Shown here: positions 2,267-49,796 of the stretch, piece by piece
Layout: each line of letters starts with the position of its first letter
How positions within the stretch are numbered: position 1 is the first letter of the stretch
Origin: Pseudomonas phage TC6
DNA length: 49,796 nt
Reading direction: 5' to 3' (one strand)
Sequence record: MG676466.1
Notes under the pieces: model-generated
Seen by the model: only the letters and a program-made list of their open reading frames with translations
Told to the model about the DNA's origin: nothing
The model's database searches: none
Position numbers and translations under genes: made by a program

Positions 2267-2770
2267 ATGATAGATAAATCTAGATTGGTTGACAGTATGG
2301 GTAGGCCACTCACTCAAAGTTTGTTTTTAGAAATTGGTTATAGTGAGTTTGCTGTCTATACTTTTAAAGATAGAGACTACGCCTACAAAGGCAGTCATTA
2401 TCCTTCTCTTAAGCGGCTGTACCTAGAAGAGGAAGACCCTATTGAGTACACCTTTGCGGAGAAGCATTTGCTTGGCTGGCAACATTGGAAACGCCTTCAA
2501 GAAAACAAGATTATTCGTAAACAAATTGATCAATGGCGTGAAGAGCTAGAGCTTAAACTCCGGTCACAAGGTGTAAGAGAAATGCTTAACCTTTGTGCTA
2601 GTGAGACCGGTAACTTCAGTGCTGCTAAATACCTAGCTGATAGAGGTTGGGAGAAACGAGCTGCTGGTCGTCCTAGCAAAGCTGAGAAAGAACGATATCA
2701 AGCCATTGAAGAAAAACTACAAGACGAGTTCAGTGCTGATATTGCTCGACTAGATGACTTTAGGAAATAA
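2267..2770 (+). CDS. putative terminase small subunit
   Basis: 167 aa charged ORF immediately upstream of the large terminase, with a good RBS (GGAGTATCAT-ATG). The assignment is positional only. Confidence 0.35.
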   Translation: MIDKSRLVDSMGRPLTQSLFLEIGYSEFAVYTFKDRDYAYKGSHYPSLKRLYLEEEDPIEYTFAEKHLLGWQHWKRLQENKIIRKQIDQWREELELKLRSQGVREMLNLCASETGNFSAAKYLADRGWEKRAAGRPSKAEKERYQAIEEKLQDEFSADIARLDDFRK

Positions 2771-2773
2771 GTA

Positions 2774-4381: not shown

Positions 4382-4393
4382 TTTGGAGATATA

Positions 4394-6148
4394 ATGTCAA
4401 CTAAAGTAGCTGAGCTTAATAGCTTGCTGGTACGTGATAGTTCTGCCCAATGGGTAGCCTATCTCTGGGATCGTTTTAATAATCAACGACGCCAGAAAAT
4501 TGAAGAGTGGAAAGAGTTGCGTAACTATGTTTTTGCAACAGATACTACTACGACTTCCAACCAAGGGTTGCCTTGGAAGAACTCTACCACCCTCCCAAAA
4601 CTTTGTCAGATTAGAGACAACCTTCACTCTAACTATTTCTCGTCCCTATTCCCTAACGACGACTGGCTTCGCTGGGTAGGTTATGGCAAGGGTGATAGCA
4701 CTAAAACTAAAGCCAAAGCCATCCAGGCTTACATGAGCAATAAGTGCAGAGAGAGTCATTTCCGCACTGAGGTTAGTAAGCTAATCTATGATTATATTGA
4801 TTACGGTAATGCGTTTGCCACTGTAAGTTTCGAAGCTAAGTACAAAGAGATGCCTGATGGCACTTTGGTGCCTGACTACATTGGCCCACGGCTTGTACGT
4901 ATTAGTCCACTGGACATTGTGTTTAACCCACTTGCAACCTCTATTTCTGACACCTTTAAAATTGTACGCTCTGTAAAGACCAAGGGAGAGCTTATGAGGC
5001 TCGCTCAAGATGAACCTGAGCAATCCTATTGGCTAGAGGCTTTGAAGCGTAGAGAAGAGATTTGCAGGCATCTAGGGGGTTATTCTGTAGAGGACTTCGA
5101 TAAGGCTGCTGGATTCGATGTAGATGGATTCGGTAACCTGTACGAATACTACATGAGTGACTGGGTAGAAATCCTGGAGTTCTATGGAGACTACCACGAC
5201 AAAGAAACTGGCGAACTTCAAACCAATAGAATTATCACTGTAGTAGATAGGTCTACTGAAGTTCGTAATGAGTCCATTCCGACTTGGTTTGGCTCTGCCC
5301 CAATTTACCATGTTGGTTGGAGATTCCGCCCAGACAATCTGTGGGCCATGGGACCTCTAGACAATCTAGTAGGTATGCAATATCGAATTGACCATCTTGA
5401 GAATGCCAAGGCTGATGCTGTCGATCTTATCATTCAACCTCCGCTGAAAATCATTGGTGAGGTGGAAGAGTTTGTATGGGGTCCTAGTGCGGAGATTCAT
5501 CTGGACCAAGGCGGTGATGTACAAGAGGTTGCCAAGAACGTTAACTATATCATCAATGCAGACAACCAAATTCAAATGCTAGAAGATCGTATGGAGCTGT
5601 ACGCTGGCGCTCCTCGTGAGGCTATGGGCATTCGTACTCCTGGTGAAAAGACTGCATTTGAAGTACAACAGCTTGGTAATGCTGCCGGTCGAATCTTCCA
5701 AGAGAAGGTCACTACGTTCGAAGTAGAACTGTTGGAGCCTGTGCTAAACGCTATGCTGGAAACCGCTACTCGTAACATGGATGGTAGTGATGTTATTCGA
5801 GTTATGGATACTGATCTTGGCGTTAAAGAGTTCATGTCTGTTACTCGTGAAGACATTACTGCTAACGGAAAGATTAGACCCATTGGCGCTAGACACTTCG
5901 GTAAGCAGGCACAAGACTTGCAAAACCTAGTAGGAATCTTCAATAGTCAAATTGGGCAAATGATTCTTCCTCACACTAGTGGTAAGGCGTTGGCTACTTT
6001 CGTAGATGATGTAACTGGATTGCAAGGTTACGAAATCTTTAGACCTAACGTGGCAGTAGCAGAACAAGCAGAGACTCAATCGCTTGTTGCACAAGCACAA
6101 GAAGACCTGCAACTTCAAGCTCAAATGCCTGCTGAGGGTGCTATCTAA
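4394..6148 (+). CDS. portal protein
   Basis: 584 aa ORF between terminase and scaffold/capsid, with the size and position of a portal. Acidic C-terminus. Confidence 0.7.
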   Translation: MSTKVAELNSLLVRDSSAQWVAYLWDRFNNQRRQKIEEWKELRNYVFATDTTTTSNQGLPWKNSTTLPKLCQIRDNLHSNYFSSLFPNDDWLRWVGYGKGDSTKTKAKAIQAYMSNKCRESHFRTEVSKLIYDYIDYGNAFATVSFEAKYKEMPDGTLVPDYIGPRLVRISPLDIVFNPLATSISDTFKIVRSVKTKGELMRLAQDEPEQSYWLEALKRREEICRHLGGYSVEDFDKAAGFDVDGFGNLYEYYMSDWVEILEFYGDYHDKETGELQTNRIITVVDRSTEVRNESIPTWFGSAPIYHVGWRFRPDNLWAMGPLDNLVGMQYRIDHLENAKADAVDLIIQPPLKIIGEVEEFVWGPSAEIHLDQGGDVQEVAKNVNYIINADNQIQMLEDRMELYAGAPREAMGIRTPGEKTAFEVQQLGNAAGRIFQEKVTTFEVELLEPVLNAMLETATRNMDGSDVIRVMDTDLGVKEFMSVTREDITANGKIRPIGARHFGKQAQDLQNLVGIFNSQIGQMILPHTSGKALATFVDDVTGLQGYEIFRPNVAVAEQAETQSLVAQAQEDLQLQAQMPAEGAI

Positions 6149-21398: not shown

Positions 21399-21620
21399 TT
21401 AGCATTTATAAGTGATTGTTTGTGCAGGCAATTGCATGACTTTGCTCAAGTCCTTATAAGTAGGTGATACTTTAACCTCTGGGGTTACTTTATTGAAGAC
21501 AGTCTGAAGATGCTGTTCAATTACCTCCATAGTCTCTTGTGTAGCACCTAATCTATGATCTATAGTTCTCTTAAGTTCAAAGTACCCTTGCAACCAATAG
21601 CAAAACTGTTCGGGTGTCAT
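21399..21620 (-). CDS. hypothetical protein
   Basis: Start refined to MTPEQF with RBS GGAGGT. Preceded by conserved motif copy C. Confidence 0.45.
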   Translation of the reverse strand: MTPEQFCYWLQGYFELKRTIDHRLGATQETMEVIEQHLQTVFNKVTPEVKVSPTYKDLSKVMQLPAQTITYKC

Positions 21621-21625
21621 ATTAA

Positions 21626-21677
21626 CCTCCAAAAATTTTTCTAGCAGAAATTCACGTCATTGAGCATTGCATTATCC
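21626..21677 (-). promoter_or_regulatory. conserved promoter/leader element copy C
   Basis: Minus-sense sequence GGATAATGCAATGCTCAATG...TAGAAAAATTTTTGGAGGT shares its core with copies at 41401-41455, 45981-46035 and 1-48. Confidence 0.45.
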
Positions 21678-32486: not shown

Positions 32487-32976
32487 CTTGCCCCTTCAAC
32501 TCTTCTCTAAAGTTGTACACCATACGGCTAACAAAAGCTGCGTCAGCATCAGTTACTTCTACAATTTCCCTAGGCTTATAGCCCAAGATAAAATACAGAT
32601 GGAGAACATCAGCAACGTTTGATGGACGCTCGGCGATAGCTCTGTCAATAAACTTTCGTAGACCACTTTCAGTTTGAGAGAGTACCACTCCATCTACTTC
32701 TTCCTCATCGAATTCTTCACACATACCATATCGGCGTTCATCCCTCTTAAAGTCTCGAAGGGCATTATTAAGAATGGAATTGAACCAAGCTCCCAACTCT
32801 TTTCGTTCTGGGTCATAAGAGTTCCAATACTTCAATGCTCTGGAGAAAGCTTCTTGAACAATGTCTTCTGCGTTCTCAGGAGTACCAGCACGGAACGACA
32901 CACGCTTTACCAATTCATTGTAGTTGTTCTTAAAGAACCTGCCCATAATCAGGTTACGAGCTTTCACATCAACCAT
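32473..32976 (-). CDS. ECF-like sigma-70 family sigma factor
   Basis: Region 2-like DIVQEAFSRALKYW...ELGAWFNSILNNALRDFKRDERR and region 4-like HTH VADVLHLYFILGYKPREIVEVTDADAAFVSRMVYNFREEL. Confidence 0.6.
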   Translation of the reverse strand: MVDVKARNLIMGRFFKNNYNELVKRVSFRAGTPENAEDIVQEAFSRALKYWNSYDPERKELGAWFNSILNNALRDFKRDERRYGMCEEFDEEEVDGVVLSQTESGLRKFIDRAIAERPSNVADVLHLYFILGYKPREIVEVTDADAAFVSRMVYNFREELKGQVGID

Positions 32977-34691
32977 TATACTTCCTCAAACATAGTTGTT
33001 TCTTTGTTCCAAAAGAGTGGGTAGTTACCTGTGCCACCAAACTCACGATCTTCCAACAAACGTAGGTTACGTAGATTACGTACATGCTCAGGAAGCTCTG
33101 GGTCTTTGTTACCCTCCAAACCAAGCATCAAGTTACAAGAACGCATCATAGCACGGCTGCCAGCAAACTGAGAGCTAACAACGTCACCCCCAAGCTCATG
33201 AGGACAGTTGCCCAATCCATAGAACTTGCCATCTTTATATTTTTTCTGGCGTTGATCAAGGCTGAGGTTACCTTCAGGCGCTTTAAGGTGAGCGAAGAGG
33301 AATACGACAATGTTAAGATCAAGAGCCATAGCCGAAATCTCTTGAGCAATCTCTTGCAACTTGACGTTAGCGTCTGCTGCTGCCATACCGTTCGTAAGGT
33401 TGGTAATAGGGTCAATGAATACAACCTTAGCACCCCACGCCGCAGCAGCATAAATGTCTGCTTTGAGCGTTTCCCAACCAAGGTGCTGGTAGAGGTTAAC
33501 CATTGCGAGCTTGTCTTTAAGGACTTCTCCAGCCCTATCATAAGCGTCAAAGTCAAACTCTCTCTCAGGGTCATGGAACACCTTCTTGGCAATCTTGCCA
33601 CACATGAGTTTGTATGTCTTAGCGTTAGCTTCTTCTGGCTTAGCCATGAATACTTTAACGCCATGCTCTTTTACGAAGTGAGCCCCCAACATATTGAGTA
33701 GCTCAGACTTACCCATCTTTACACCAGCGCCGATGTAAATAGTTTCCCCGAACCTAATACCTCTAGTCTTCTTATTGATGTGTTCCCACGGCCAAGTAAG
33801 TTCACCATAAGCGGCAGGCTTACGAGCCTCTTCATGCAAGTCTTCACCAAAGACTAGTCTGGTATTCTTAACCTTTTGGTGATTGAAGGTGCAAGCCTTG
33901 TGAGCTGCCTTCCCCTTGCCTGACATGAGACATTCGTTAGCGTCTTTACCTGGGAGATTGATCACTGTAGCGTCTGGGAAAATCTTACACACATCTTCTA
34001 CAGCACGCTGACCAGCATCATCGTTGTCAAAAGCTAGACTAACTTCCTTAAAATATTTTCTAATCTCAGGCATCAGCCTAGCAATATCTTTACCAGCGGC
34101 TGAAGCACCATGAGGAAGAGAACATACTGCTGGAATATTATCTTTGTATTGTTCTGGCGTATAAATCTCTAGGATTTTATGGAGGGCAGCAGCATCAAGC
34201 TCACCTTCAGTGATAATTAGACGCCTAGCACCAGACTTCTTAGCTACTTCCCAACCAAACAAATCAACATCAGTTTGATCACCAATAGTCCACATACGCT
34301 TGTTCTCTACGAAGCGTACCTTGTAGGCTCTTAGCTCACCATTCTTGTAGTATGGGTAGTAGTGAAACTTGGGAGTCTTACCATCCTCTTCACTAACACC
34401 AATCTTAATACCATAAAGCTCTAGAACATCTTTACGAAGTTTACGATCAACTATATCAACAACACCATAGTCACTAATCTCTTTGATCTCTGCCTCAATC
34501 TCTTCCCTAGTTTTCTTAATACGCTCCTTCTTGGGAATGTCAGAGGCTTTCTTATCATCACCAAATGGATGGCGAACGTAAGTCTTACAAGCATAACAGT
34601 AGCCATCCACTGTACCATCTTCACGCTCGAAGACTTGTAGGGCATCTCTACTACCGCATTGATGCCCAATCTTAACTAGGGCTTGTCCCAT
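32976..34691 (-). CDS. DNA primase/helicase (T7 gp4-like)
   Basis: N-terminal zinc finger (CGSRD...CYACK), TOPRIM region and DnaB-like Walker A GAGVKMGKS. Confidence 0.85.
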   Translation of the reverse strand: MGQALVKIGHQCGSRDALQVFEREDGTVDGYCYACKTYVRHPFGDDKKASDIPKKERIKKTREEIEAEIKEISDYGVVDIVDRKLRKDVLELYGIKIGVSEEDGKTPKFHYYPYYKNGELRAYKVRFVENKRMWTIGDQTDVDLFGWEVAKKSGARRLIITEGELDAAALHKILEIYTPEQYKDNIPAVCSLPHGASAAGKDIARLMPEIRKYFKEVSLAFDNDDAGQRAVEDVCKIFPDATVINLPGKDANECLMSGKGKAAHKACTFNHQKVKNTRLVFGEDLHEEARKPAAYGELTWPWEHINKKTRGIRFGETIYIGAGVKMGKSELLNMLGAHFVKEHGVKVFMAKPEEANAKTYKLMCGKIAKKVFHDPEREFDFDAYDRAGEVLKDKLAMVNLYQHLGWETLKADIYAAAAWGAKVVFIDPITNLTNGMAAADANVKLQEIAQEISAMALDLNIVVFLFAHLKAPEGNLSLDQRQKKYKDGKFYGLGNCPHELGGDVVSSQFAGSRAMMRSCNLMLGLEGNKDPELPEHVRNLRNLRLLEDREFGGTGNYPLFWNKETTMFEEV

Positions 34692-34705
34692 TTACTCTCC
34701 TATTG

Positions 34706-34900
34706 TTAACAACTGTCATCACATGGTCTAGCACCACAAGTCACACACATTAGTGGCGAGTAGTTGCATCCGTAAGTGGCAGTGAAATCTTGGTCTCCAT
34801 TCACATACGTTGTGACCACAGCTTCGCTGCCACAATCTGGGCACTCTCCCAGTGTTTCATTACTTCCTTCTGGGCCTATGTTCCAACCGTCACAACACAT
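34706..34900 (-). CDS. Cys-rich small protein (zinc ribbon-like)
   Basis: Contains CPDCGS and CVTCG pairs. Confidence 0.35.
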   Translation of the reverse strand: MCCDGWNIGPEGSNETLGECPDCGSEAVVTTYVNGDQDFTATYGCNYSPLMCVTCGARPCDDSC

Positions 34901-35022
34901 ATTACTCTCCGAATTTTTTCTTCAATTCTTCATACTGTCTGCGTTGATAAGCCTCAGCTGCTTCTTTTTTAGAGGTATAACTAACTATTTTCTTCAAACC
35001 TGTTTCATATTCACGACATACT

Positions 35023-35322
35023 TCATACATAATCTTGCTCCTTGACAAATACACCATCAATCATTCGACCTTTACGGTCTTTAATTTCTTGATAGGAATG
35101 ATACAGACAATCCTCTACAGACAATCCAAGCTGCTCAGCTAGAATGATTAGCACCACTATACAATCGCCAATGTCGTCAATGGCTGGTTTACCTTTACAC
35201 AAACTGTCACTAAGCTCTCCAACTTCTTGAATGAGTTTAAGACATTGATCTTTAGGCGTACTGCCTTCAATCAAATTCCTATCACTAGCCCAGCGTTTGA
35301 TACTCTCAATCAATACTTTCAT
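35023..35322 (-). CDS. mazG: MazG-like nucleotide pyrophosphohydrolase
   Basis: EVGELSDSL...DIGDCIVVLIILAEQLG pattern matches the MazG EExGE...D...LxD motifs. Confidence 0.65.
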   Translation of the reverse strand: MKVLIESIKRWASDRNLIEGSTPKDQCLKLIQEVGELSDSLCKGKPAIDDIGDCIVVLIILAEQLGLSVEDCLYHSYQEIKDRKGRMIDGVFVKEQDYV

Positions 35323-35330
35323 AACTCTCC

Positions 35331-35624
35331 TTATGTAGAAATATGATTACGAACAAGGATATCGTTAACACACTTATCACGATCTTCCTCGTCAATGTAT
35401 CCGTTAGGGTTGTTCTGCCCACCTACATAACCCCACTCGTAAATACTTCGCAGCCATCCAGGTAAGTCAGATAGCTTTGCGCACAGTGCTGCGACTTCCT
35501 CCCTGAGCGCCTGGGCCTCTTCGGCGAGGTCGTCGTAGTCCTGGCTAAGGACGAACTCCCCGAATTGGCTTTCTTCCCAGCCATAGATATTTCCAACCGG
35601 GCTGATCTTCTTCACCTCACTCAT
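35331..35624 (-). CDS. hypothetical protein
   Basis: 97 aa. Its N-terminal third lies within the GC-rich island. Confidence 0.4.
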   Translation of the reverse strand: MSEVKKISPVGNIYGWEESQFGEFVLSQDYDDLAEEAQALREEVAALCAKLSDLPGWLRSIYEWGYVGGQNNPNGYIDEEDRDKCVNDILVRNHIST

Positions 35625-36966
35625 GGATCAGTCCTCCCGATACAGGTCGTATTTGCGGCAGATGGCGTCCATTTCCGGGCGCGGCGGCGAGAGATCGCAG
35701 ACCATCATGGATGGCTCGCAGGTCGTCGTCGGTCGGCTCTGTGCGCAGGTACAGAACTACGGAGCGCGGATAGGCGAAGTCTCGTCCGATCCCTGACACC
35801 TCCGGCACGCTGTGCTGAGCCTGGGCTACAGGGGCGGTGTAGAGCTTCGTGCCCGACGGTATGCCTTTCAGGTCGCGATAGAAATGAAGGCCGTTCCAGT
35901 CTTCACCCGGCACCCTCGCAACGGTCGCCACCGGCTCCTGCTTCTCCATCTCCGCCAGTTTGGCGTTGGCGTCCATCAGCAGCGCGCAATAGTTGTCTGC
36001 CATAGTTTTCATATCTGCGACCCTGGCCAGGGCGGCGTCGCGCTCTGCCGTGCGGCCCGAAACCAGACCATCAAGACGAGCAATTTCCGCTTCCCGTTCC
36101 CGGATTTCGTTCTGCAAGGCTCGGTAGGTTTCCTGGCCGGAATCCATGTAATCGTTCTTGTGCTGGCGGAGCTGGGCTATCACCGCCCGCAGTTCCCCGA
36201 CGATGCACTCATGCTGGGCGACGGTCATCAGCGATTGATATTCGCCGCCGGATTTCCATTCATCGAGACATGCCTTGTCGCTGACGATTCCGCCTCTGGA
36301 GTCGTAACGCCACGCCACCACCTCCGGCCGCTCCGCCTCTGCCTGCTCGGCTAGTGCCTCGGTCGCGTCCTCCACGAAGAACCCGCAGTGCCGGCACTCG
36401 CGGCCGGTCTTTGTCACGCCGTTGCGGTTCCACCAGACGCCATAGAAGTCGTGCCGGCAGGTCTGTTCGGTGGTGGTGCCGCGCTCGGCCAGGTCCGGCG
36501 CAGGGGAGGGTTGCGCTAGGGCGGCGTAATAGACGGGAGTGCCAACCGGCATTTCCCACGCGCTACGGTCTTTTGCCCATTCGAGATATCGTGAGGTTTC
36601 ATCACCCGCAACGTGTGCTACGGGAGCGATTGAAATTGGGCGGTCCGCCTCGGTGCCTTCAGGCATAGGCCCCCATTCTGTAGCCTGATTTCGACGGTCT
36701 TGATAAGCCTGTTGCTCTTGCCTGGCTTTCTCTCGCAAAGCGTCAGCCATCTTCGCCATAGGCGATTCATCGGCTACAGGGGTGCTTGCCAGGGCGGCGC
36801 GGGCTTGCCAGGCCATCCAGTACGATTGCGTCTGCGCCAGTTTGTAACAGTTGCCGGAGCGCTCAACCGCCTTCGGGTAGATTCCTTCATCACTGGCCCA
36901 GTATTCGAACTTGGCGCGCTCATCCCCGCCTGCCTGCTCTACCGATTCCTTGTTCAGTTCGCTCAT
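35617..36966 (-). CDS. hypothetical protein encoded in GC-rich island
   Basis: 449 aa ORF in a 60-68% GC segment, with Cys pairs (CRHDFYG...CRHCGF) and a C-terminal coiled coil. The overlapping ORFs on other frames are GC-driven artefacts. Confidence 0.5.
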   Translation of the reverse strand: MSELNKESVEQAGGDERAKFEYWASDEGIYPKAVERSGNCYKLAQTQSYWMAWQARAALASTPVADESPMAKMADALREKARQEQQAYQDRRNQATEWGPMPEGTEADRPISIAPVAHVAGDETSRYLEWAKDRSAWEMPVGTPVYYAALAQPSPAPDLAERGTTTEQTCRHDFYGVWWNRNGVTKTGRECRHCGFFVEDATEALAEQAEAERPEVVAWRYDSRGGIVSDKACLDEWKSGGEYQSLMTVAQHECIVGELRAVIAQLRQHKNDYMDSGQETYRALQNEIREREAEIARLDGLVSGRTAERDAALARVADMKTMADNYCALLMDANAKLAEMEKQEPVATVARVPGEDWNGLHFYRDLKGIPSGTKLYTAPVAQAQHSVPEVSGIGRDFAYPRSVVLYLRTEPTDDDLRAIHDGLRSLAAAPGNGRHLPQIRPVSGGLIHE

Positions 36967-37715
36967 TTCAATTCCTCAAACCTTTTGACATAACCTTCGA
37001 GCGTCGTGCCATCAACTCCTGGAGCTGTATTGACTTCCAGCACGTATGCTTGCTGTTCCTTCTCGTTGAAGATGACGTCTGCTGCACCGAAGTCAAGTCC
37101 ACAGGCTTCAACAGCCTTAATAGCTTGTTCAATAATGTCTTCATGAGGTTTAATTCCTTCGTTACGTGCAAAGATAAAACCACCACCAATGTTCCTAATC
37201 TTCCAATTCACTTCGTCATCAGGAACATCTTTCTTACGTGCTTTTCTTTGAATATCTACACATTCACCACGGAACACATGAATTCGCCACTCTTGTTTCT
37301 TGGGCACATACTTAGTGTACAGAGGTGCATCAACAAGCTCATCATCACCTGGCCCTACAAGTACAATACCCTTACCACTGTTTGCATTTAGCAAAGTACG
37401 ACATACTACAGTGTTGCCACCATCCACCCATTTAAGGGCCTCAGCTTTCTCTGTAGTGGATTCTGGTGTACGGGCATGCCCTACCATTGCCTCGAAGAAA
37501 GAACGCTTGTTAGCGGCCATAGAGACGGCTACAGAGGTATTAACAACCGTACACTTAAGAACTTCTTCTGGAAGGTTGCTACTACCCCAGTTAATCACCA
37601 CTTTATCTGGGGAGCCTTTGAACTTAGAGTTCTTATGCTTAATAAATTTTACATTAAGCATGTCCTTGATTTGCTTACCAGCCTTACTGGCGTTATTGTA
37701 CGCATAGATAAACAT
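36963..37715 (-). CDS. ATP-grasp ligase
   Basis: C-terminal VLEVNTAPG and glycine-rich GKGIVLV, typical of RimK/GshB-type ATP-grasp enzymes. Confidence 0.65.
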   Translation of the reverse strand: MFIYAYNNASKAGKQIKDMLNVKFIKHKNSKFKGSPDKVVINWGSSNLPEEVLKCTVVNTSVAVSMAANKRSFFEAMVGHARTPESTTEKAEALKWVDGGNTVVCRTLLNANSGKGIVLVGPGDDELVDAPLYTKYVPKKQEWRIHVFRGECVDIQRKARKKDVPDDEVNWKIRNIGGGFIFARNEGIKPHEDIIEQAIKAVEACGLDFGAADVIFNEKEQQAYVLEVNTAPGVDGTTLEGYVKRFEELK

Positions 37716-38662
37716 TAGAACGGCACTCCTTCTTCAACCCAAATCGGTGGGAAGATTTCTTTTGGTACTTCAGCAAAGAACGCAACGGGATCAAAGTCAT
37801 AGTTAAGAACTTCCTTTCTCGGTGCTGGTACAGGCGGAACAATCTCTTCTTGGAAGAACTGTTGCCAATCACAACAGAAAGCAATGTCCTGTGCTCGTCG
37901 CATACCATCGTTCAACATCTTGGGTACGTTGTCATAGTCTTTAAACAACTCTACATGCTCACCAAGACATTTATTAAGGAACGCTACGTAGTCCCCCTCA
38001 GAATAACTGTTGATAATATCCTTAGGATCAGTAAACTTCTTAGCAGCTTCACGAAGATCAACAAGAATATTAGCCCATTTATGAATGAGGTTTAGATCAC
38101 GAGTGCCACGCATAGCACGGAACTCAAGACTGCCATACGTACCCAAAGCCTTGACGTTCATAGAGCCATAGCGAAGATTATCGTCAGTCAGAATGCGTCT
38201 GAACTGTCGAGTACGTGCTGCCTCTGACAACCTAAACAACAGCCATTCTGCGTCACAAGCACGAAGGCAAAACAAATTGCCCTCTCGATATGGACCACAG
38301 AACTTAACCAAAAGTTCCTCAAGAGTAAGGTAGAGCGTCATAAAGTTATAAAGCTCTACAATGTTTAGTTGCTGAACGTTGATATGCACATGGACACCAG
38401 CACGTACCGTGTCATCAACAACTGAATTGTTCTTCTTGTATTGCATGTTAAGATGGCTTAGAGCAAGCTTAACTTGACGGAGAGTCATAGGTTTTTCTAG
38501 GACATACTCTGCGTTATCTTCGCCACGAAGAGAGCCGTCAGCCTCTACTCTCCAATACCTATCAAAAGCTTTGGGCAAGTTCTTACCCTCCACTTCAATC
38601 TCTACACCAACATCACCCTTGGTGGGTAGTTGGATGCCGAACCATTGCATTACAGTTTTCAT
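37715..38662 (-). CDS. amidoligase (Amidoligase_2 / GS-like family)
   Basis: VGVEIEVEG motif near the N-terminus and HVHINV, characteristic of the phage-associated GS-like amidoligase family. Confidence 0.55.
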
Positions 38663-39228
38663 AGCACCTCCTGTAGTGCTTCACGAAGAAACATAAACTC
38701 ACCGCTCAGTTCTGGATTACCGTCTCTCACACAACCAACAATCAGGTTTTTGTAAATGAGTGGCCTATTATTTTTCAATTTACTATCGCCAACAGCCCAC
38801 TCCCTACACCAAGCTCTCAATACTCTAGCTGGTGAATCAACACACTCTTGCAAAGTTGGGTAGATGCCTTCAATAGTATCTGCTAACGCATTGTAGTTAA
38901 CTAGATCGGCAGGAGTGCCGTATACTGAAGTGAAGTTTCCAATTCGTAGCCCTTGTCTCCAATCCCTACGCATTGGCATGCGAGTAAGGTAAGAGATTGC
39001 ATTGCCAATATTGGCAAAACCTAGCTTTACAGGAGTCAAGTCTAGGTCGTCAAGGTTAACAATATTACCCTCACCACCTCGAAGAGAAGTGATCAGGACT
39101 CCTTTCTTCATCACCTTGTTAACAAAGACCCCCTTACCTTCATGCCTAACAATAGTATTGTTAAGTCGGGAGTCTGCATATTGCCAATCATCACCATACA
39201 TATTCATGTTACACCTGCTTGATAACAT
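38659..39228 (-). CDS. hypothetical protein (ligase cluster)
   Basis: 189 aa. Start overlaps the upstream stop. Confidence 0.35.
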
Positions 39229-40072
39229 AATCCCCTAGGAAGCCCTTTTCGGCCAGTACAAATCCAGGCGGCATAGGGATTTTGTTTTTACCAAGGAGAT
39301 ATGCTAGGTTTCTTTCATCAGGTTTAGCTGATACGCCGAGTGACCGAACAGTGTCGTCATATTCCTCATTGTAAGCAGGCTTACCCTCAAGGAGTTTTTT
39401 GATGCCAAGCACAGTATTTTTAAATACCCACTTCATAAGTGCTTTATCTTTCAACCAAGCGTTGGACAACACTCGATACTCAACACCATACGGCTTAGGA
39501 CGGAATGCTCCCATAGCACCATAAAGAGTACGACGCTTCACTTGCTTATCATAAAGAAGGCTGGGCAACCCAAGGTAATAGTCAAGCTGTTTTGCTGCCA
39601 TGCAGCACGCCTCAATGTGGTCAGGATCACTGATATCAATGTCATTTCCCCAACCAATGTGTACGTGACCAGCACCAGTACGGAAGTCTACTTCAGCATT
39701 GGGGCGAGGATTAGCTGCACCGTTTTCATAAGCGTTGAAGTCAGGCTCGCACCCAAGTTCTTTCGCTTCGTCAGGTTGGCCTTTGATATAATCGAAACCG
39801 AATTCAGCAACCGGAGATGGGTTCAATTCGAACCCAGGTACCATACCCTTAAGGGTGGACATTACCGTAGTTAGGTTGCGTACAAATTCTTTCTCATCTT
39901 TAGCCGGATCAATGTTGAACTCAAGCGCCATGCCATCTACTTGGACAGCACCCTTGTCAACCTTGAAAGGTTCTTTCTTGTTGCCAGGAATGGCACCATG
40001 CGCTGATACGAATTTGCCGTCCTTCATCATGAAGATTTCCGGGTCAGCGCCAACCAGAATATTCAGACTCAT
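39209..40072 (-). CDS. carboxylate-amine ligase, GCS2/YbdK-like (second amidoligase)
   Basis: VGADPEIF, MALEFNIDP and TGAGHVHIGW motifs resemble the glutamate-cysteine-ligase-2 / GS-like fold. Confidence 0.5.
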   Translation of the reverse strand: MSLNILVGADPEIFMMKDGKFVSAHGAIPGNKKEPFKVDKGAVQVDGMALEFNIDPAKDEKEFVRNLTTVMSTLKGMVPGFELNPSPVAEFGFDYIKGQPDEAKELGCEPDFNAYENGAANPRPNAEVDFRTGAGHVHIGWGNDIDISDPDHIEACCMAAKQLDYYLGLPSLLYDKQVKRRTLYGAMGAFRPKPYGVEYRVLSNAWLKDKALMKWVFKNTVLGIKKLLEGKPAYNEEYDDTVRSLGVSAKPDERNLAYLLGKNKIPMPPGFVLAEKGFLGDYVIKQV

Positions 40073-40081
40073 ATCGTTTAC

Positions 40082-41395
40082 CTATGCTTGTTTAAGATAT
40101 TGTTTAACGTCAGGAAACTCTTTACAACTACCGCAAACAAAATTGTGCTTGTCCAACCACAACAAATCGTTAGCATCACTTTCATCTACGGGACTACTAC
40201 ACCATGAACAACATTTTTCTGTGCGTTGTTCATATACAACCCTACTAACAACTTCACCACCATATACAACAAATGTCTCAGGTGGAGTGTCGTCAGCAGT
40301 ATTACCAAGCTCAATAATCTCTTCGACTGTACGGAGATCAATGGTCAAATAGCCTTTTTCAGAGCTACTATACGACTTAACATGAGCCTTAAAGAAGTTA
40401 GAAGAGTTAAGCATCTTGTGCCAAAGCTCGCTACCTTCTCCAGCGTAACAACGAATGGAGACTAGGTCGTTGTCACATGCCCAGCATTGCAGGAACTTTT
40501 GGTTGTAGTTATTAGTTGAAACCTTATCGACGTAGAAGTCGCATGATTTTCCTACAAACCTTTGATACTCCGCAAATCCCGCTGCTGGCGTGGACTTTCC
40601 CACATTGGTGGCTGCCGAAAAGACGTTATTAGCAGCCGTAGAGGTAGTAGACGCCACTACGGCTTTCTGAAAATTTTGACGAAGCTCCAGTTTCCTAGTG
40701 CGACATTTTTCCAGAGGCTTATATTGATATGGGGAGCCGAGGGGAATGTCAAAGCTGAAGTGGATGCCAATGGGTACAGAGAAAATTTCTCCAAACTTCT
40801 GGCCAGCCATGCCACAAGCAACTTCAATCATCCAATCTTCACTAGCCCAAATAATCGCTTTACGATCTTCGGTGAAACAGTAGTAGAGGGGTCGCTCACT
40901 GTTACGAATGAAGTTAATAGTGCTCTCTTCCTTGTTATACCAAGTGAGTGCGAATGCACCATCTAGAACTTTGACAGTTTCTGCTACACCATTACGCTCC
41001 ATGTGATGGTATAGGTTCTCACTGTCCACTTCAAACTGAGTGTTATCGTCCAGATCACGAACAGAACGAAGAGTTCCGTTATGGGCACCTACTAGCGTAT
41101 CAAAATCGAAGGGGTGGGCGTTCTTAGCAGAGATTTTACCTTTGGTTGCCCAACGGTTATGCCCCAGCAGGACATTGAAAGAACCACCCTTAAGGTACTC
41201 TTCAAAGTCTTTACTGTCGAACAGCCCCTCCCAAGGAGTACCAAGCTTCTTGACAACTTTATTGTCGCCATTAGTACGCACCATAGCTACACCAGTGCTA
41301 TGAGGGCCACGTACAGTGTCAAGTTGAAGAAGACAGCGGAAAGTTTTTTCCAAGTTAAACGTAACAGCGCCTGCAACACCGACGAGTCCACACAA
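40082..41395 (-). CDS. class II (Ntn) glutamine amidotransferase domain protein with Cys-rich C-terminal domain; TTG start
   Basis: Begins M-CGLVG (N-terminal nucleophile Cys) with GHNRWATKG...NAHPF. C-terminal half has CWACDN and CCSWCS...CGSC clusters. GGAGGT lies 5 nt upstream of the TTG. Confidence 0.65.
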   Translation of the reverse strand: MCGLVGVAGAVTFNLEKTFRCLLQLDTVRGPHSTGVAMVRTNGDNKVVKKLGTPWEGLFDSKDFEEYLKGGSFNVLLGHNRWATKGKISAKNAHPFDFDTLVGAHNGTLRSVRDLDDNTQFEVDSENLYHHMERNGVAETVKVLDGAFALTWYNKEESTINFIRNSERPLYYCFTEDRKAIIWASEDWMIEVACGMAGQKFGEIFSVPIGIHFSFDIPLGSPYQYKPLEKCRTRKLELRQNFQKAVVASTTSTAANNVFSAATNVGKSTPAAGFAEYQRFVGKSCDFYVDKVSTNNYNQKFLQCWACDNDLVSIRCYAGEGSELWHKMLNSSNFFKAHVKSYSSSEKGYLTIDLRTVEEIIELGNTADDTPPETFVVYGGEVVSRVVYEQRTEKCCSWCSSPVDESDANDLLWLDKHNFVCGSCKEFPDVKQYLKQA

Positions 41396-41400
41396 ATTGC

Positions 41401-41455
41401 ACCTCCAAAAATTTTTCTAAAGTAAATGTCGGCCATTGGCCATTGCATTATTCGA
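41401..41455 (-). promoter_or_regulatory. conserved promoter/leader element copy A
   Basis: Minus-sense sequence TCGAATAATGCAATGGCCAATGGCCGACATTTACTTTAGAAAAATTTTTGGAGGTG. Confidence 0.45.
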
Positions 41456-41948
41456 CATGTTTTCTGTAGCCTGCGTCGTACAGGATTTCGCAGAAGCGTT
41501 TAAGCGTCGTCGACCAGTGGAAGCTATCGAAGGCACCGAGCATCTCGCTGATTGCCTTTTCACGCCCCTCGGCGGCGATCTGTTCAGCGGTGCGGATGGG
41601 GCGCACGCCGTGCCCATTGCGAGGGTAATACTTCCCCTTGTGGCTGATAACAGCGAACACGCCATCATGACCAATGACGCGACCTTTCGCCCAGCCGATA
41701 CTGCCCAGGTTCAGCGAGAACTCACACTCGATGCCAACGGGCGGCAGGCCCTGGCCGTCCCAGGACTCTTGCGGAATAGGTACGTAATAGTCAGGCATGA
41801 ATCCTTTGTCGAAACTGTTGACCATGAACCATTTGCCTTTGTAGTGTTCATACGCAACAGTACCTTCGATTTTTCGCCAAGGATTTATGTCATCGTGTAT
41901 GTGGTAGTGCGTCGCACCATCTGGTGCCTTGCTCCAGTCAATGCTCAT
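41448..41948 (-). CDS. hypothetical protein
   Basis: 166 aa Trp/Tyr-rich ORF. Confidence 0.4.
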   Translation of the reverse strand: MSIDWSKAPDGATHYHIHDDINPWRKIEGTVAYEHYKGKWFMVNSFDKGFMPDYYVPIPQESWDGQGLPPVGIECEFSLNLGSIGWAKGRVIGHDGVFAVISHKGKYYPRNGHGVRPIRTAEQIAAEGREKAISEMLGAFDSFHWSTTLKRFCEILYDAGYRKHVE

Positions 41949-41959
41949 GTTGTGTCCTT

Positions 41960-42148
41960 TTATTTAAATGGTCTGTCGCCGAATTTACTCAGATAAATTT
42001 CTAATGCAGCATCAGCTTCGGTCTGAGCTGTTTGGTTTTTAAAACCATTTTGCTTAGAAGCAATAAAGTTTGCCTTCCAAAATTCTCTTTTATCTAACTC
42101 AAACGCGACACGTGCTCGTCTCTCTTGCTCTTCATCCGTCCGACTCAT
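41960..42148 (-). CDS. small hypothetical protein
   Basis: 62 aa charged ORF. Confidence 0.3.
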   Translation of the reverse strand: MSRTDEEQERRARVAFELDKREFWKANFIASKQNGFKNQTAQTEADAALEIYLSKFGDRPFK

Positions 42149-42771
42149 GCTTTTAATCCCAGATAACGATTAAGCAATTCAAAATAGTAGTCACGAGTGC
42201 TGTCAGCGTTATAAGACTCTGGGTGTGGCTGGAAGCACAAAGACTTGGTGTTGTCGTAATACACTACCTCTACATCTGCCTCATTAGCCAAGAATACGCT
42301 ATCATAGCTTTCCTTAACTTTAGACTCATAGGCAACAGCAATGATTTCTCCATTGTAACCTGGAATCATCATTTGATGGTGAGTGGAAGTTACTGAAAGT
42401 TGTTCACCAGAGAATCTGTCTTCGAGGTCATGTTCCCTACCTTTCGCATGGCCGTTAACATGTTGGTACATCTTACCACCATTCATGACATTAAGAAACT
42501 GGCCACCACGACAAATGCCTGCCATACGAATTTTGTTTCGCTGGGCAAAGGCAAAGTAACCTGCCTCTTCCAAGTCACGTCTTTCATTGTGATAGGTCTT
42601 TGGATGGACGCCTTCACCATACAACATAGGTGTTACATCTTCACCTCCAGTAAATTGGATTAGGTCTGCTGTGAAGAAGTCTTTAATGCTACCTACTTCC
42701 CAACCCATGCGCTTAAACATCTCAGCGTACTGGCCATTCCCGTTGATAATAACTACTTTAGGCACGTCCAA
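42145..42771 (-). CDS. class I glutamine amidotransferase-like / peptidase C26 (gamma-glutamyl hydrolase-like)
   Basis: GICRGGQFLNV nucleophile elbow and CFQPHPE His-Glu region. Confidence 0.55.
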   Translation of the reverse strand: MDVPKVVIINGNGQYAEMFKRMGWEVGSIKDFFTADLIQFTGGEDVTPMLYGEGVHPKTYHNERRDLEEAGYFAFAQRNKIRMAGICRGGQFLNVMNGGKMYQHVNGHAKGREHDLEDRFSGEQLSVTSTHHQMMIPGYNGEIIAVAYESKVKESYDSVFLANEADVEVVYYDNTKSLCFQPHPESYNADSTRDYYFELLNRYLGLKA

Positions 42772-43690
42772 TCTCCTTCATAATTTCATGTTCGAAAGCT
42801 GCCATAGCTTCAATACCCTTCCAATATGAGACGGAGCCGCCCCCTTCTTTGGGCTTAGCTTTCTGAAACGGATTGACGCCTTTGTCGGCCTCAGCTTTCA
42901 CTTTAAAGTTGGCATCTAGCCACTGGCCCATATTATTTCGTGGCTCTATCATTCCCCAACCATTACCTTGCTTATTTTTATGCAGATACATCCTATCGTA
43001 ATAATTATACTGTACACACTCAGAGTATGGCTCATTTGGGGTTGTGACTTTGTGATCAAGCCATGCACACAAAGCTTCTTTATCAAAGAAGTGTGGGTTC
43101 ATAGAGCAATGACCACTGTGGCAAGTCAAGAAATTAATATTGCCTGCCCTATTCGCCCTTGCTTGGCTCTTATGAGCCACCCAAAAAGCCAAGTCTTCAT
43201 TCATACCAGCATGCACCAAGTCATGCCACACGATTAGAATGTGATTGGCTTCCCACAAACGACGAGAAGCTACCAGTCCAGCGGCCAACAGATTAGAGGG
43301 AGCACTACTGTCTGCAATGATACAACTATTTTTAATAGCGTCTTTAGCAGACTTAGTAACAAACACCTTACTGTATGGGCTTCGATTAAGAAGCCAATCT
43401 AGATAGGCTTCTCCCTCTTTAGTATTGAGTAGGTTGCCTATATATTTAGGTTGGAGACCGCTAATCACCGCAATCGAATTAGTCGGCAAACTCTTCAAGC
43501 CAAAGTGGCAAACTTGGTTTGTACTCACTTGCAAGTGATCTTTGTACGCATGATTTTTGTACACAGCGCCAACACTTGCCATGTACGCTGCGCATAATTT
43601 GTAATGGCCATCAACTTTCCCCTTGCCGAGTAGAATTTTCTTAAATACTTTCCTGGCTTTTAACGCAATGAGGTAGTGTTCCCGTTTCAT
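42758..43690 (-). CDS. hypothetical protein
   Basis: 310 aa with His-rich motifs (HDLVHAG, CHSGHC). Confidence 0.4.
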   Translation of the reverse strand: MKREHYLIALKARKVFKKILLGKGKVDGHYKLCAAYMASVGAVYKNHAYKDHLQVSTNQVCHFGLKSLPTNSIAVISGLQPKYIGNLLNTKEGEAYLDWLLNRSPYSKVFVTKSAKDAIKNSCIIADSSAPSNLLAAGLVASRRLWEANHILIVWHDLVHAGMNEDLAFWVAHKSQARANRAGNINFLTCHSGHCSMNPHFFDKEALCAWLDHKVTTPNEPYSECVQYNYYDRMYLHKNKQGNGWGMIEPRNNMGQWLDANFKVKAEADKGVNPFQKAKPKEGGGSVSYWKGIEAMAAFEHEIMKEIGRA

Positions 43691-43691
43691 A

Positions 43692-43922
43692 CTACTTCCC
43701 TTTCCAAATAGTCTTCAGTTCTTTATAAACTTTACGAGCACAGTTCTCATCAAGCTTGATGGTGGCCATTTGAATGACAGTCATCTTCTTAGTGCCATCA
43801 TCATTCAACTTACCAGTCCAAACTTCCTTGGGCTTGTGCAACTTGCTAGTGTAAGTTGTTTGAGTGGCAAAGGTATCGTTGTATGCAATCTTACGGAAAA
43901 GTTTAGCTTTGGTGTTACGCAT
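43692..43922 (-). CDS. small hypothetical protein
   Basis: 76 aa ORF. Confidence 0.35.
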   Translation of the reverse strand: MRNTKAKLFRKIAYNDTFATQTTYTSKLHKPKEVWTGKLNDDGTKKMTVIQMATIKLDENCARKVYKELKTIWKGK

Positions 43923-44089
43923 TATTTGAGTTCCTCAATTTTAGTTTCAGACGGGTCTTCATAACGCCAGCCATCAGCCTCAGCATTAAGCAAAGCAATC
44001 TTGTAGGCATGGTCTTTGTTGTGTGCATAGACACGGGTGTTGTAGTCTGGTTGAAGTAGCCAGACAAACTTAACTTGATATTGTTTCAT
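43922..44089 (-). CDS. small hypothetical protein (55 aa, not in ORF track)
   Basis: ORF MKQYQVKFVWLLQPDYNTRVYAHNKDHAYKIALLNAEADGWRYEDPSETKIEELK. Its stop overlaps the downstream ATG (TAATG). Coordinates are approximate. Confidence 0.3.
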   Translation of the reverse strand: MKQYQVKFVWLLQPDYNTRVYAHNKDHAYKIALLNAEADGWRYEDPSETKIEELK

Positions 44090-44335
44090 TTCTATTTCCT
44101 TACATCTATCCTAAGACATTACCAATAGATTTAACCGAGGATGAGATTGACAATTGCTACTTCCACCACAAGCTCGAAGAAACCGAACCAGCCAATCAAG
44201 CAAATCTCTTGTCTGTCCATCTTCCAACCATGGCGGATAAGACCAGTGAGGATGAGCATGTTACACCTTCCAGTCCTTGCGCTTCTGCGCAATGTAGGGG
44301 CCAATGACGAAGACACACACGAGGGCGATCATGGC

Positions 44336-47187: not shown

Positions 47188-47442
47188 CTACAAACTCAAG
47201 GGTTTTACGGTTGAAGCGTAGAATACGGGCAGGGAGAGGCGCTGCGGTGTCACGTCAAACGTGACCGGCGCATTTTCGCAGGGCGAGAAAATGATTCGCG
47301 CCCAATGCAAACCGCGTCCGTATTTTTCGTAGGCGGCGTATGCGAGTTCGAACGTTTCGAATGAATCGCAGTAATCGCAATCTTCGAAAATGTCGTCGCC
47401 GTCATATTCGAATTTGCCAGCCTCTACGTGAAACTTGAGCAT
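47188..47442 (-). CDS. hypothetical acidic protein
   Basis: 84 aa ORF with Cys pairs (CDYCD) in a moderately GC-rich stretch. Confidence 0.35.
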   Translation of the reverse strand: MLKFHVEAGKFEYDGDDIFEDCDYCDSFETFELAYAAYEKYGRGLHWARIIFSPCENAPVTFDVTPQRLSLPVFYASTVKPLSL

Positions 47443-47452
47443 TGTTTGATCC

Positions 47453-47725
47453 TCAGTTGGTTTTTGCTTTGAGTGCTCGATTGATTTTGGTAGCTTTTAC
47501 GCCGCTACCCTTTGCCAGTCGCTTACCCTTTGGGTTCCAGAAGTCATTAAGGTTAGTACGACTGCCACGATATACAACATCGTTCATAGCTTTACGTGCC
47601 TTGCGTGCTTCAGGGGTGCGCTCAGCATTTAGTGCGTCAATCTTATCTTCACGCCGTGCAATCTTAGCTTTGTTGCTCATTCTAGTGTCAGGTTGACGCT
47701 TGTGATTCTTAGCTTGGAAGGCCAT
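47453..47725 (-). CDS. small basic protein
   Basis: Start refined to MAFQAKNHKRQPD with a perfect RBS (AGGAGGAACTAAT). Lys/Arg-rich. Confidence 0.45.
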   Translation of the reverse strand: MAFQAKNHKRQPDTRMSNKAKIARREDKIDALNAERTPEARKARKAMNDVVYRGSRTNLNDFWNPKGKRLAKGSGVKATKINRALKAKTN

Positions 47726-48774: not shown

Positions 48775-48886
48775 GGTAGTGCCTCCTATGTGGATACACT
48801 ACAGCACACTAAACATATTGTTAAAGAACGGTGGCCTACTTCCCTCGACTCGTAAGGCCTGTCAAGCATTGAACCCTTTCCTTACA

Positions 48887-49093
48887 TCACGCATGCATCC
48901 GCACGGTGATGTAGCCGTTGCTTGCAACTACATGCTCCCAGCAATTGAAGAAGACGGACTGTCCGAACTTCTTCATTGCCGCCTGTCGAACCTTCACCTC
49001 AACGTCCAGAGGTTGTTCACCTGCTTCAGGCAGGGCAAGCCATCGCAGGCTCTTGCCGTCGCTTAGGTGGGAATCGATGTTGAATTGAGCCAT
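48887..49093 (-). CDS. small hypothetical protein
   Basis: Start refined to MAQFNIDSH with RBS AAGGAGA. Confidence 0.4.
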   Translation of the reverse strand: MAQFNIDSHLSDGKSLRWLALPEAGEQPLDVEVKVRQAAMKKFGQSVFFNCWEHVVASNGYITVRMHA

Positions 49094-49796
49094 TTCAGTC
49101 TCCTTACCAGGGTTTACCGGCGTTGATGTATGCACTTACTTGTAACGTCACTCCCCCGTTAGATGCCTGCCGGCCTTACACTAACTGGTTCATGCCCTAG
49201 AACCTATCGTGTCATTCCCCATAATGTCCGTAGACTAGAGAACAAGATTGTCGGCTCCGTTGAAGGTTAGTTACCTTCTGAGAACGCACGTTAGTCTATG
49301 CGCTCTTAGAAGTCAACTGTTATTTGTACACCAGGCACATCACACAATCAGACAGAACCACTACATCTACCTTGTAACCTTCACCTTCTGCGCAGTCTTT
49401 AAGCGCTTGCGCTTCGGCTTTGTTTGCAACAATTGAGATGGTCATTTTTGGTTGCCTTTGTTTGTGTCTACGGCTGCGAACTCTACAGACCTGTATCGAA
49501 GTCTGCTAATTGATTGTAACTATCAATGTGGTGTCGGTGAATAGGACATACCTATAACCCTTACGTGTATAGATGAACGTGTACACGCGTAGCATGATGC
49601 ATGCCAAGTATAGGTGTGCTGTTAGCACGTTTTATAAGCCTATACGCGACGGTAGTCGCACATACACATAAGCACATGTGCTGGCTTGCCAGCGTATAAG
49701 CCTGGACCCCTAGTGCCACCAGGCTTAGAGGCCTATTTGCATGTGAAGAAAAATGTGGTGGACATAGTGGAGGTACATTACACCCCACCTCCTCAT

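Follow-up and report, generated by a model that had tools for sequence, protein, structure and literature searches.

Why does the genome of Pseudomonas phage TC6 (MG676466.1), at about 45% guanine plus cytosine (GC), carry one sharply bounded GC-rich island, and where did this DNA come from? The whole record of 49,796 nucleotides (nt), referred to here as the window, was analysed around an island at 35476–36966 that holds a gene for a protein of 449 amino acids (aa) and the start of the gene that follows it. The sequence flanking the island in TC6 is 99.6% identical to that of phage PA11 (genus Paundecimvirus, family Zobellviridae), and the TC6 paper describes a lytic podovirus in which integrase and repressor genes were not found; the island is not discussed there. 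We propose that the early/DNA-metabolism operon of Paundecimvirus contains a recombination hot spot fed by prophages and occupied by a gene of a modular protein family, and that the island is probably the allele now present there. The origin and the anatomy of the island are well supported.

An initial annotation, made from the letters alone, had described a sharp GC-rich island with a 449-aa open reading frame (ORF) and read it as a recent horizontal acquisition, a moron from a high-GC donor with a possibly host-derived or anti-defence gene. GC plots bear out the island itself. A composition count over 35480–36965 gives a GC fraction of 0.610 versus 0.446 for the remainder of the 49,796-bp window, about 8.5 standard deviations (SD) above other segments of 1,486 bp (mean 0.447, SD 0.019, maximum 0.509), and segments of 200 bp range from 0.55 to 0.695 inside the island versus 0.34 to 0.48 in its flanks. 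The borders are abrupt: over 50-bp segments, GC steps from 0.48–0.54 to 0.66 on the left at about 35476 and from 0.52–0.60 to 0.38 on the right at about 36951, and these two compositional steps delimit the strandless island proper of about 61% GC. The shift extends to all three codon positions. GC at third codon positions (GC3) is 0.68 in the 449-aa gene, 0.32–0.41 in the flanking genes and 0.71–0.75 in the prophage alleles described below, and GC at first and second positions (GC1 and GC2) is 0.68 and 0.48 in the 449-aa gene and 0.51–0.57 and 0.30–0.39 in the five larger flanking genes.

The gene content is also as first annotated. Both the 449-aa gene (35617–36966) and the 97-aa gene whose N-terminal half reaches into the island (35331–35624) lie on the minus strand, downstream of a cluster of ATP-grasp, amidoligase and ligase genes that begins at 36963 and upstream of a MazG-like gene (35023–35322, minus). 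In other frames, the island is overlapped by six further ORFs of 97–201 aa; nothing indicates that any of them is a gene, in agreement with the initial view of them as spurious, and they are by-products of composition. The ATG of the 449-aa gene overlaps the stop codon of the ATP-grasp gene (ATGA), with GAGGAA just upstream, and at its other end it shares 8 nt (ATGAGTGA) with the start of the 97-aa gene, which has GGGAGGA upstream. Across lineages, the ratio of non-synonymous to synonymous polymorphism (pN/pS) is 0.06–0.33 in most segments and 0.29 when pooled. From these sequence features, the 449-aa gene is real and under purifying selection, and it is translationally coupled to both neighbours.

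Near-identical counterparts of the island lie in temperate phages. Its segments match 259 phage records, of which 253 are Pseudomonas phages, and are 93–99% identical in nt sequence to temperate phages and prophages of P. aeruginosa over stretches of 140–600 bp. Matches include phage LC3I3 at 35484–35625 (96.5%) and 36778–36944 (98.2%), the Detrevirus phi1 at 35672–35827 (99.4%), PAShipCat1 at 35800–35955 (98.7%) and P. aeruginosa prophage L015 at 35672–35955 (97.2%) and 36014–36351 (96.5%). A single donor was sought, and none of the 259 matching records covers 80% or more of the island. The temperate-phage and prophage loci compared have 59–66% GC, their alleles have the GC3 of 0.71–0.75 given above, and 80 IMG/VR loci that contain an anchor sequence have a median GC of 0.60. 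Because the near-identical prophage loci are similar to it in GC and GC3, the TC6 copy is barely ameliorated; this GC3, together with the nt identity, upholds the proposed horizontal acquisition from a high-GC source. The nature of that source is narrowed by a 28-nt anchor at the 5′ end of the gene, which has exact matches in 93 viral contigs of IMG/VR but is absent from all 185,579 species-representative bacterial genomes, and which thereby points to the accessory phage pool, not the host core genome. In PAShipCat1, L005, phi1 and the prophages L014 and L015, the homologue sits between the recT/bet–exo genes (RecT/YqaJ) and the excisionase and integrase genes, a position that corresponds to the exo–xis region of phage lambda. 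Among P. aeruginosa temperate phages the modular family is common in the early-left region (recT/exo–xis/int), and it occurs in several lytic Pseudomonas phage genera as well.

The position occupied by the island varies throughout the genus. We compared TC6 by BLAST with PPAT, PA11, FBPa8, PP21, O4, IME180 and Ty and consulted the annotations of these records. Between the MazG-like and ATP-grasp genes lies a variable slot, in which the stretch without a PPAT counterpart is 35337–36950. TC6 encodes 449- and 97-aa proteins here, PA11 and PSA11 a 292-aa protein (these lack the 97-aa and MazG-like genes), FBPa8 a 384-aa protein and a 216-aa fusion protein, PP21 proteins of 205 and 102 aa, O4 one of 220 aa, IME180 and K4 proteins of 76 and 94 aa, and Ty proteins of 249 and 130 aa. 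Filled slots have 53–61% GC and their flanks 43–44%; a different GC-rich allele is present in six of the seven other genomes, and the principal slot genes of PA11, FBPa8, PP21, O4, IME180 and Ty match the same PHROGs (3956, 11504, 5310 and 17860). Relatives carrying such DNA at this place had been named in advance as evidence against a recent acquisition. What the comparison removes is the idea of a one-off insertion; horizontal transfer stands, and the GC-rich alleles of the relatives therefore indicate a long-standing slot that has been repeatedly overwritten.

Losses have also shaped the slot. In PPAT (an UNVERIFIED record) it is reduced to 3577–3714, where there remain a 23-aa ORF and, from the 102-aa gene of PP21 type, a frameshifted piece (…HHSKGIWNACLDELERLRRLHEK). 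Because this frameshifted C terminus is kept, the PPAT site is a deletion, and PPAT was rejected as an example of the ancestral empty site. Between TC6 and PA11, 967–970 bp of TC6 (34960–35929) are replaced by 63 bp in PA11, which probably lost its MazG-like gene because all other intact members of the genus examined keep it. The 216-aa FBPa8_0031 (locus 2318–2968) joins the start of a 97-aa-type gene in frame to the C-terminal part of the primase/helicase. This arrangement suggests that the MazG-like gene was lost from FBPa8 together with the N-terminal two thirds of the primase/helicase.

The TC6 allele is itself a patchwork. Codons 1–18 of the 449-aa gene are common to the TC6, PA11 and FBPa8 alleles, codons 9–157 are 99% identical to FBPa8, codons 147–344 are 99.5% identical to PA11, codons 251–342 are again common to all three, and codons 343–432 are of a prophage type absent from both PA11 and FBPa8. 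Genome-wide, TC6 and PA11 differ by only about 2.2%, yet their slot alleles differ, and 1,357 (64%) of the 2,120 bp of TC6 sequence without a PA11 counterpart belong to the island locus. Set against the divergence of the two phages, these differing alleles show that part of the exchange was very recent.

Taken from its 5′ end on the minus strand, the gene opens with codons 1–18 (36913–36966), which include the anchor VEQAGGDER; exact 18-mers from 36915–36944 recur in up to seven of eight unrelated phage or prophage loci. Module A (codons 19–61; 36784–36912) is a helical region that belongs to the 98.2% match to the LC3I3 allele, with 100% identity over codons 9–59, and is fused to PF26207 in other P. 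aeruginosa proteins. Module B (codons 62–147; 36526–36783) has no counterpart in PA11 and is 99% identical in FBPa8. It is of a different type from the other modules, with 97–98% protein identity to Achromobacter and Stenotrophomonas sequences and 87% nt identity to Achromobacter phage ART; the Achromobacter phage JWAlpha carries it as a fusion with a Lar zinc ribbon. Codons 148–205 (36352–36525), of PA11 type, comprise the linker anchor AALAQPSPAP followed by a cluster of cysteines and histidines (C170, H172, C191, H193 and C194), which from its residue pattern may be a zinc knuckle that binds zinc and for which AlphaFold confidence is low. Codons 206–250 (36217–36351) hold the anchor EQAEAERPEVVAW (36309–36348) and a small β-α-β module, and codons 251–342 (35941–36216) form the coiled-coil core, which is predicted as one long helix, is more conserved than any other part of the family and has anchors at 36017–36099 and 36133–36171. 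The C-terminal modules (codons 343–432; 35671–35940), with the anchors EKQEPVATVA (35916–35948) and APVAQAQHSVPE (35799–35837), are 97–99% identical in nt sequence to prophage L015 and phage phi1 and have no match in PA11 or FBPa8. The last stretch (codons 433–449 and the stop; 35617–35670) is a tail without a family counterpart. In PAShipCat1, a different small gene precedes the ‘Lar-like’ gene, and because 35610–35686 matches the 3′ end of that small gene, this tail is a fusion junction. No internal repeats beyond chance matches of 14–18 nt were found in the gene, and unequal crossing-over within it is therefore not the source of its modularity.

The borders between these modules coincide with short conserved sequences. 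A count of the exact 18-mers that TC6 has in common with eight unrelated loci of phages or prophages (lambdoid, Hollowayvirus, Pbunavirus and Samunavirus) yielded twelve anchors of 18–53 nt at module borders; the main ones are codons 8–18 (VEQAGGDER), 207–220 (EQAEAERPEVVAW), 266–317 (the coiled-coil core), 340–351 (EKQEPVATVA) and 377–390 (APVAQAQHSVPE). Over the 80 IMG/VR loci, match depth is 32–59 at the anchors and 0–18 between them, and the breakpoints between the TC6, PA11 and FBPa8 alleles fall at or beside anchors. The protein is built like beads on a string, with short, interchangeable end modules placed around the coiled coil and joined by Pro/Ala-rich linkers, the coding DNA of which is itself conserved. 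In the mechanism that we propose, homologous recombination at these in-frame anchors, on infection of a lysogen or on co-infection, would exchange cassettes of the AT-rich phage for those of prophage alleles at about 60% GC. Un-ameliorated GC-rich DNA would in this way repeatedly overwrite the 5′ part of the locus, while the AT-rich 3′ module of the 97-aa gene would stay native.

The 97-aa gene is split in the manner that this mechanism envisages. Its N-terminal half (35475–35624) has a GC3 of 0.72 and is 96.5% identical to LC3I3 gp34; its C-terminal half (35331–35474) has a GC3 of 0.35 and is common to O4, IME180 and Ty. O4 gp51, a single ORF, has the same border: 170 GC-rich codons of prophage type (GC3 0.59) are followed by 50 that make up an AT-rich native module (GC3 0.39), the module that also ends the TC6 97-aa protein. 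By profile, the 97-aa protein matches phrog_3592 weakly (E 2 × 10−4), and its C-terminal module aligns with the C-terminal part of a phi1 ‘Lar family protein’; the Pfam scan of this protein returned nothing other than a sub-threshold HALZ and no Lar domain, and the CPFCG motif was not seen in its aligned N terminus. Separately, a copy of this AT-rich C-terminal module with 74% identity is present in the Pbunavirus BL6.

The 449-aa protein belongs to a very large family. A family search returned at least 2,466 clusters at 90% identity with E ≤0.001, and 604 representatives at 50% identity with the same E limit; among the best 120 of the at least 2,466 clusters, nearly all are from P. aeruginosa, with lengths of 282–782 aa. 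The protein matches phrog_3956 over residues 106–444 (E 4.5 × 10−90) and phrog_11504 over residues 148–432 (E 1.9 × 10−41), and it contains the core motif AQHE.IVGELRA.IAQLRQHKNDYMD.GQETYRALQNEIREREAEIARLDGLVSG..AERDAALA, written from columns that are at least 90% conserved in 120 homologues. An AlphaFold2 model built with 120 homologues has a mean predicted local distance difference test (pLDDT) score of 61.7. Its sole confident element is a helix at residues 249–342 (pLDDT >90); the N-terminal helices are moderately confident, a small β-α-β unit spans residues 216–248 and the linkers are of low confidence. The model thus predicts a central coiled coil of about 94 residues with short modules on both sides. 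The coiled coil of the initial annotation is thereby retained, and of its cysteine pairs there remains the one cluster C170-x-H172…C191-x-H193-C194, the other cysteines being scattered.

Database searches beyond the PHROGs were negative. The 449-aa protein matched no Pfam family at E ≤0.1, PF13935 and Lar included, and a profile search of Protein Data Bank (PDB) sequences gave no match at E ≤1; NCBIfam scans of the 449-aa and 97-aa proteins gave nothing usable, and neither protein matched the anti-phage defence families of PADLOC at E ≤0.1. Foldseek comparison of the AlphaFold2 model with the PDB returned nothing at E ≤0.001, and the C2H2 zinc-finger entries that appeared at E 3–10 were rejected as noise around the Cys/His cluster. 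Across 104 representatives of the family, a Pfam scan found sporadic DUF4406, DUF4407 and DnaJ-CXXCXGXG matches and no informative fusion, and our literature search found no paper on the phrog_3956 family or on the exo–xis region of Pseudomonas phages. As a separate observation, strictly lytic Pseudomonas phage genera carry family members beside primase or replication genes, as in the Pbunavirus BL6 (locus 2641–4008) and the Samunavirus PA_L9 (3139–5079).

Several points weigh against a prophage-fed hot spot of cassette exchange. Anchor-mediated exchange is a reasonable inference drawn from breakpoint positions alone, no such event having been observed, and no recombinase gene was recognised in the part of TC6 examined. 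Some anchors may simply be the most constrained segments of the protein and not recombination substrates. The PPAT deletion means that the slot is dispensable, at least for laboratory propagation, and pN/pS reaches 1 or more in two short C-terminal comparisons, with counts too small to interpret. Finally, the Pfam, NCBIfam, PADLOC, PDB sequence and Foldseek searches provide no lead to a function.

The initial reading of the island as a classical moron, meaning one recent and self-contained cassette with its own promoter and terminator and an anti-defence or host-derived function, would account for the sharp borders and the atypical composition of a locus that is accessory and variable among relatives, and it finds a further point in its favour in the module relatives that are fused to Lar zinc ribbons, a restriction-alleviation domain. 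We nevertheless consider it unlikely. On the minus strand from 34600 to 37800, no sigma-70-like promoter, the only promoter type scanned, and no site resembling an intrinsic terminator was matched, and start and stop codons overlap at both gene junctions; for want of own transcription signals and because of these overlaps, we do not call the island gene a moron. The presence of an allele in six other genomes of the genus, with PPAT as a deletion remnant, departs from the clean presence or absence of a moron, and the island is a composite of several sources. An anti-defence role has no support from PADLOC, Pfam or NCBIfam, and neither TC6 protein has a Pfam Lar domain. Capture from the core chromosome of the host, and not from phages, is far less probable still. 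The GC content of P. aeruginosa is about 66%, most database homologues are labelled P. aeruginosa, and a protein of P. aeruginosa strain 2192 is named as similar in the PA11 annotation, all of which would fit such a capture; both bacterial loci examined are, however, prophages, with CII/Cro/S24 repressor, RecT, YqaJ, Exc and integrase genes nearby. The GC3 of the P. aeruginosa core genome is about 0.85–0.9, and the observed 0.68–0.75 falls below this value and fits phage early regions, with loci of about 60% GC. With the 28-nt anchor confined to viral contigs in the comparison above, temperate phages and prophages, through their early region, form the donor pool, and the suggestion of a host-derived gene was abandoned.

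Two explanations that dispense with transfer altogether, or with the island as a part of TC6, carry hardly any probability. GC richness could in principle be native, a consequence of a coiled-coil protein rich in Ala, Arg, Gly and Glu or of selection acting on the DNA, and the raised GC1 and GC2 and the retention of a GC-rich gene here in every intact relative are in keeping with this; but GC3 is nearly doubled relative to the flanking genes, and it switches from 0.59–0.72 to 0.35–0.39 at the module border within both O4 gp51 and the TC6 97-aa gene. The reading already fails on the 93–99% nt identity, over 140–600 bp, to phages of unrelated genera. An assembly chimera, in which the TC6 contig would have taken in reads of an induced prophage, is just as improbable. 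P. aeruginosa lysates often contain induced prophages, which lends the idea some substance, but independent phages span the junctions (PA11 over 36914–37800 at 99.5%, O4 over 35020–35519, and PP21 and LC3I3 over 35469–35625), and the reading frames are open and coupled across both. The island as the present allele of a recombination hot spot supplied by prophages is accordingly the reading that we retain.

The event itself is best read as phage mosaicism through prophage exchange, which is of a known kind, in a family that is catalogued but uncharacterised. Lambdoid phages are mosaics that arise by recombination at short conserved boundary sequences flanking exchangeable segments. The TC6 locus likewise has short conserved stretches around exchangeable segments; it differs in that its anchors lie inside one ORF with the frame kept, and in that the transfer runs from temperate phages of 60% GC to a lytic phage of 45% GC. 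With the morons of lambdoid phages it shares atypical composition, accessory status and a place between conserved genes, but it replaces a resident allele where morons are insertions, and its genes are coupled and without transcription signals of their own. PA11 ORF009 and FBPa8_0030 occupy the same slot between the same flanks, whereas the TC6 gene is a recombinant of both types with a prophage-type C terminus found in neither. PHROGs 3956, 11504, 9434, 5310, 17860 and 36186, all labelled ‘unknown function’, are clusters and not characterised families, and one protein matches 7–14 such PHROGs because modules are shared piecemeal. Lar proteins (PF14354, phrog_3592) differ in that both TC6 proteins lack a zinc ribbon of the CPFCG type, shared neighbouring modules being the only link.

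By position and architecture, the best analogue appears to be lambda Ea22 (PF13935, Ead_Ea22). Like Ea22, the homologue in temperate P. aeruginosa phages is the largest ORF between the recombination genes and xis/int; TC6 itself has no such genes, neither exo/bet nor xis/int. In Ea22, a coiled coil at the centre separates a short N-terminal part from a C-terminal domain that is variable (PMC10834534), and sequence diversity between phages is high (PMC7093339). The TC6 family has the same layout in the AlphaFold model and is likewise highly diverse, although the TC6 protein is 2.5 times longer. Homology to Ea22 was rejected: PF13935 gave no match at E ≤0.1, an hhalign comparison with lambda Ea22 returned a probability of 0.5% (E 0.11), and one with a weak PF13935 protein from prophage L014 returned 0.3%. 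Because TC6 is lytic, the pro-lysogenic role of Ea22 cannot apply as such.

The surroundings of the island are of native composition on both sides. Downstream lie the MazG-like gene (absent from PA11), a 64-aa ORF and the primase/helicase gene (32976–34691), and upstream the ATP-grasp (R2K-like) gene (36963–37715) and an amidoligase gene (37715–38662), all on the minus strand. The region directly upstream, 36963–41395 (minus), is conserved and encodes the ATP-grasp protein, an Amidoligase_2 protein, a 189-aa ORF, a COOH-NH2 ligase and a glutamine amidotransferase, which together resemble a pathway for peptide ligation or modification. No Rfam match at E ≤1 was found in 34500–37500, and a transfer RNA search of the whole window found none. 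Elsewhere in TC6, a second and smaller GC-rich patch (41401–41850; up to 0.60 GC over 300 bp) falls within a 166-aa ORF (41448–41948, minus). It is 99.3% identical to PA11 and 84–89% identical in nt sequence to the temperate P. aeruginosa phages D3 (orf65/66), PAJU2 and YMC11/02/R656 and to the lytic PAK_P3, and on these matches it seems to be one more acquisition from the phage gene pool that supplied the island. Relative to PA11, further segments are found only in TC6 (21401–21628, 47246–47483 and 48834–49130), and identity between the two genomes is uneven, at 99.5% over 36914–44268 and 96.2–98.2% over most of the rest; the two phages are therefore also mosaic on a larger scale. Within the mosaic region of related temperate phages, a ‘C repressor’ coding sequence of phi1 (4991–5260) covers DNA that matches the C-terminal module of the TC6 gene at 99% identity, and in PAShipCat1 a ‘Lar-like restriction alleviation protein’ (3341–3643) has no zinc-ribbon cysteines. 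As judged from sequence, the ‘Lar-like’ and ‘C repressor’ labels on neighbouring mosaic genes appear unreliable.

What the protein does can be outlined only with low confidence. It could be an oligomeric adaptor made early in infection, accessory rather than a core replication factor, whose variable end modules would bind targets of the host or of rival phages. On a broader and more speculative view, to which we give a small but not trivial chance, the phrog_3956 superfamily would be a cassette-exchange arms-race locus common to Pseudomonas phages of many lineages, with a conserved coiled-coil scaffold that carries swappable target-binding modules and in-frame anchors whose purpose would be to allow any phage, a strictly lytic one of 45% GC included, to sample alleles from prophages of the infected cell, serving counter-defence or competition between phages as a functional analogue of lambda exo–xis/Ea22.

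For annotation, the locus shows how composition yields extra long ORFs, as in this island, and how labels on mosaic neighbours can mislead. The island is the largest block of sequence that distinguishes TC6 from PA11, and, as an example of prophage genes flowing into a virulent phage used in therapy research, it is clean and datable. The family that it brings into view is very large, without Pfam coverage and common to temperate and lytic phages of P. aeruginosa, and its modular, anchor-flanked structure makes it experimentally tractable.

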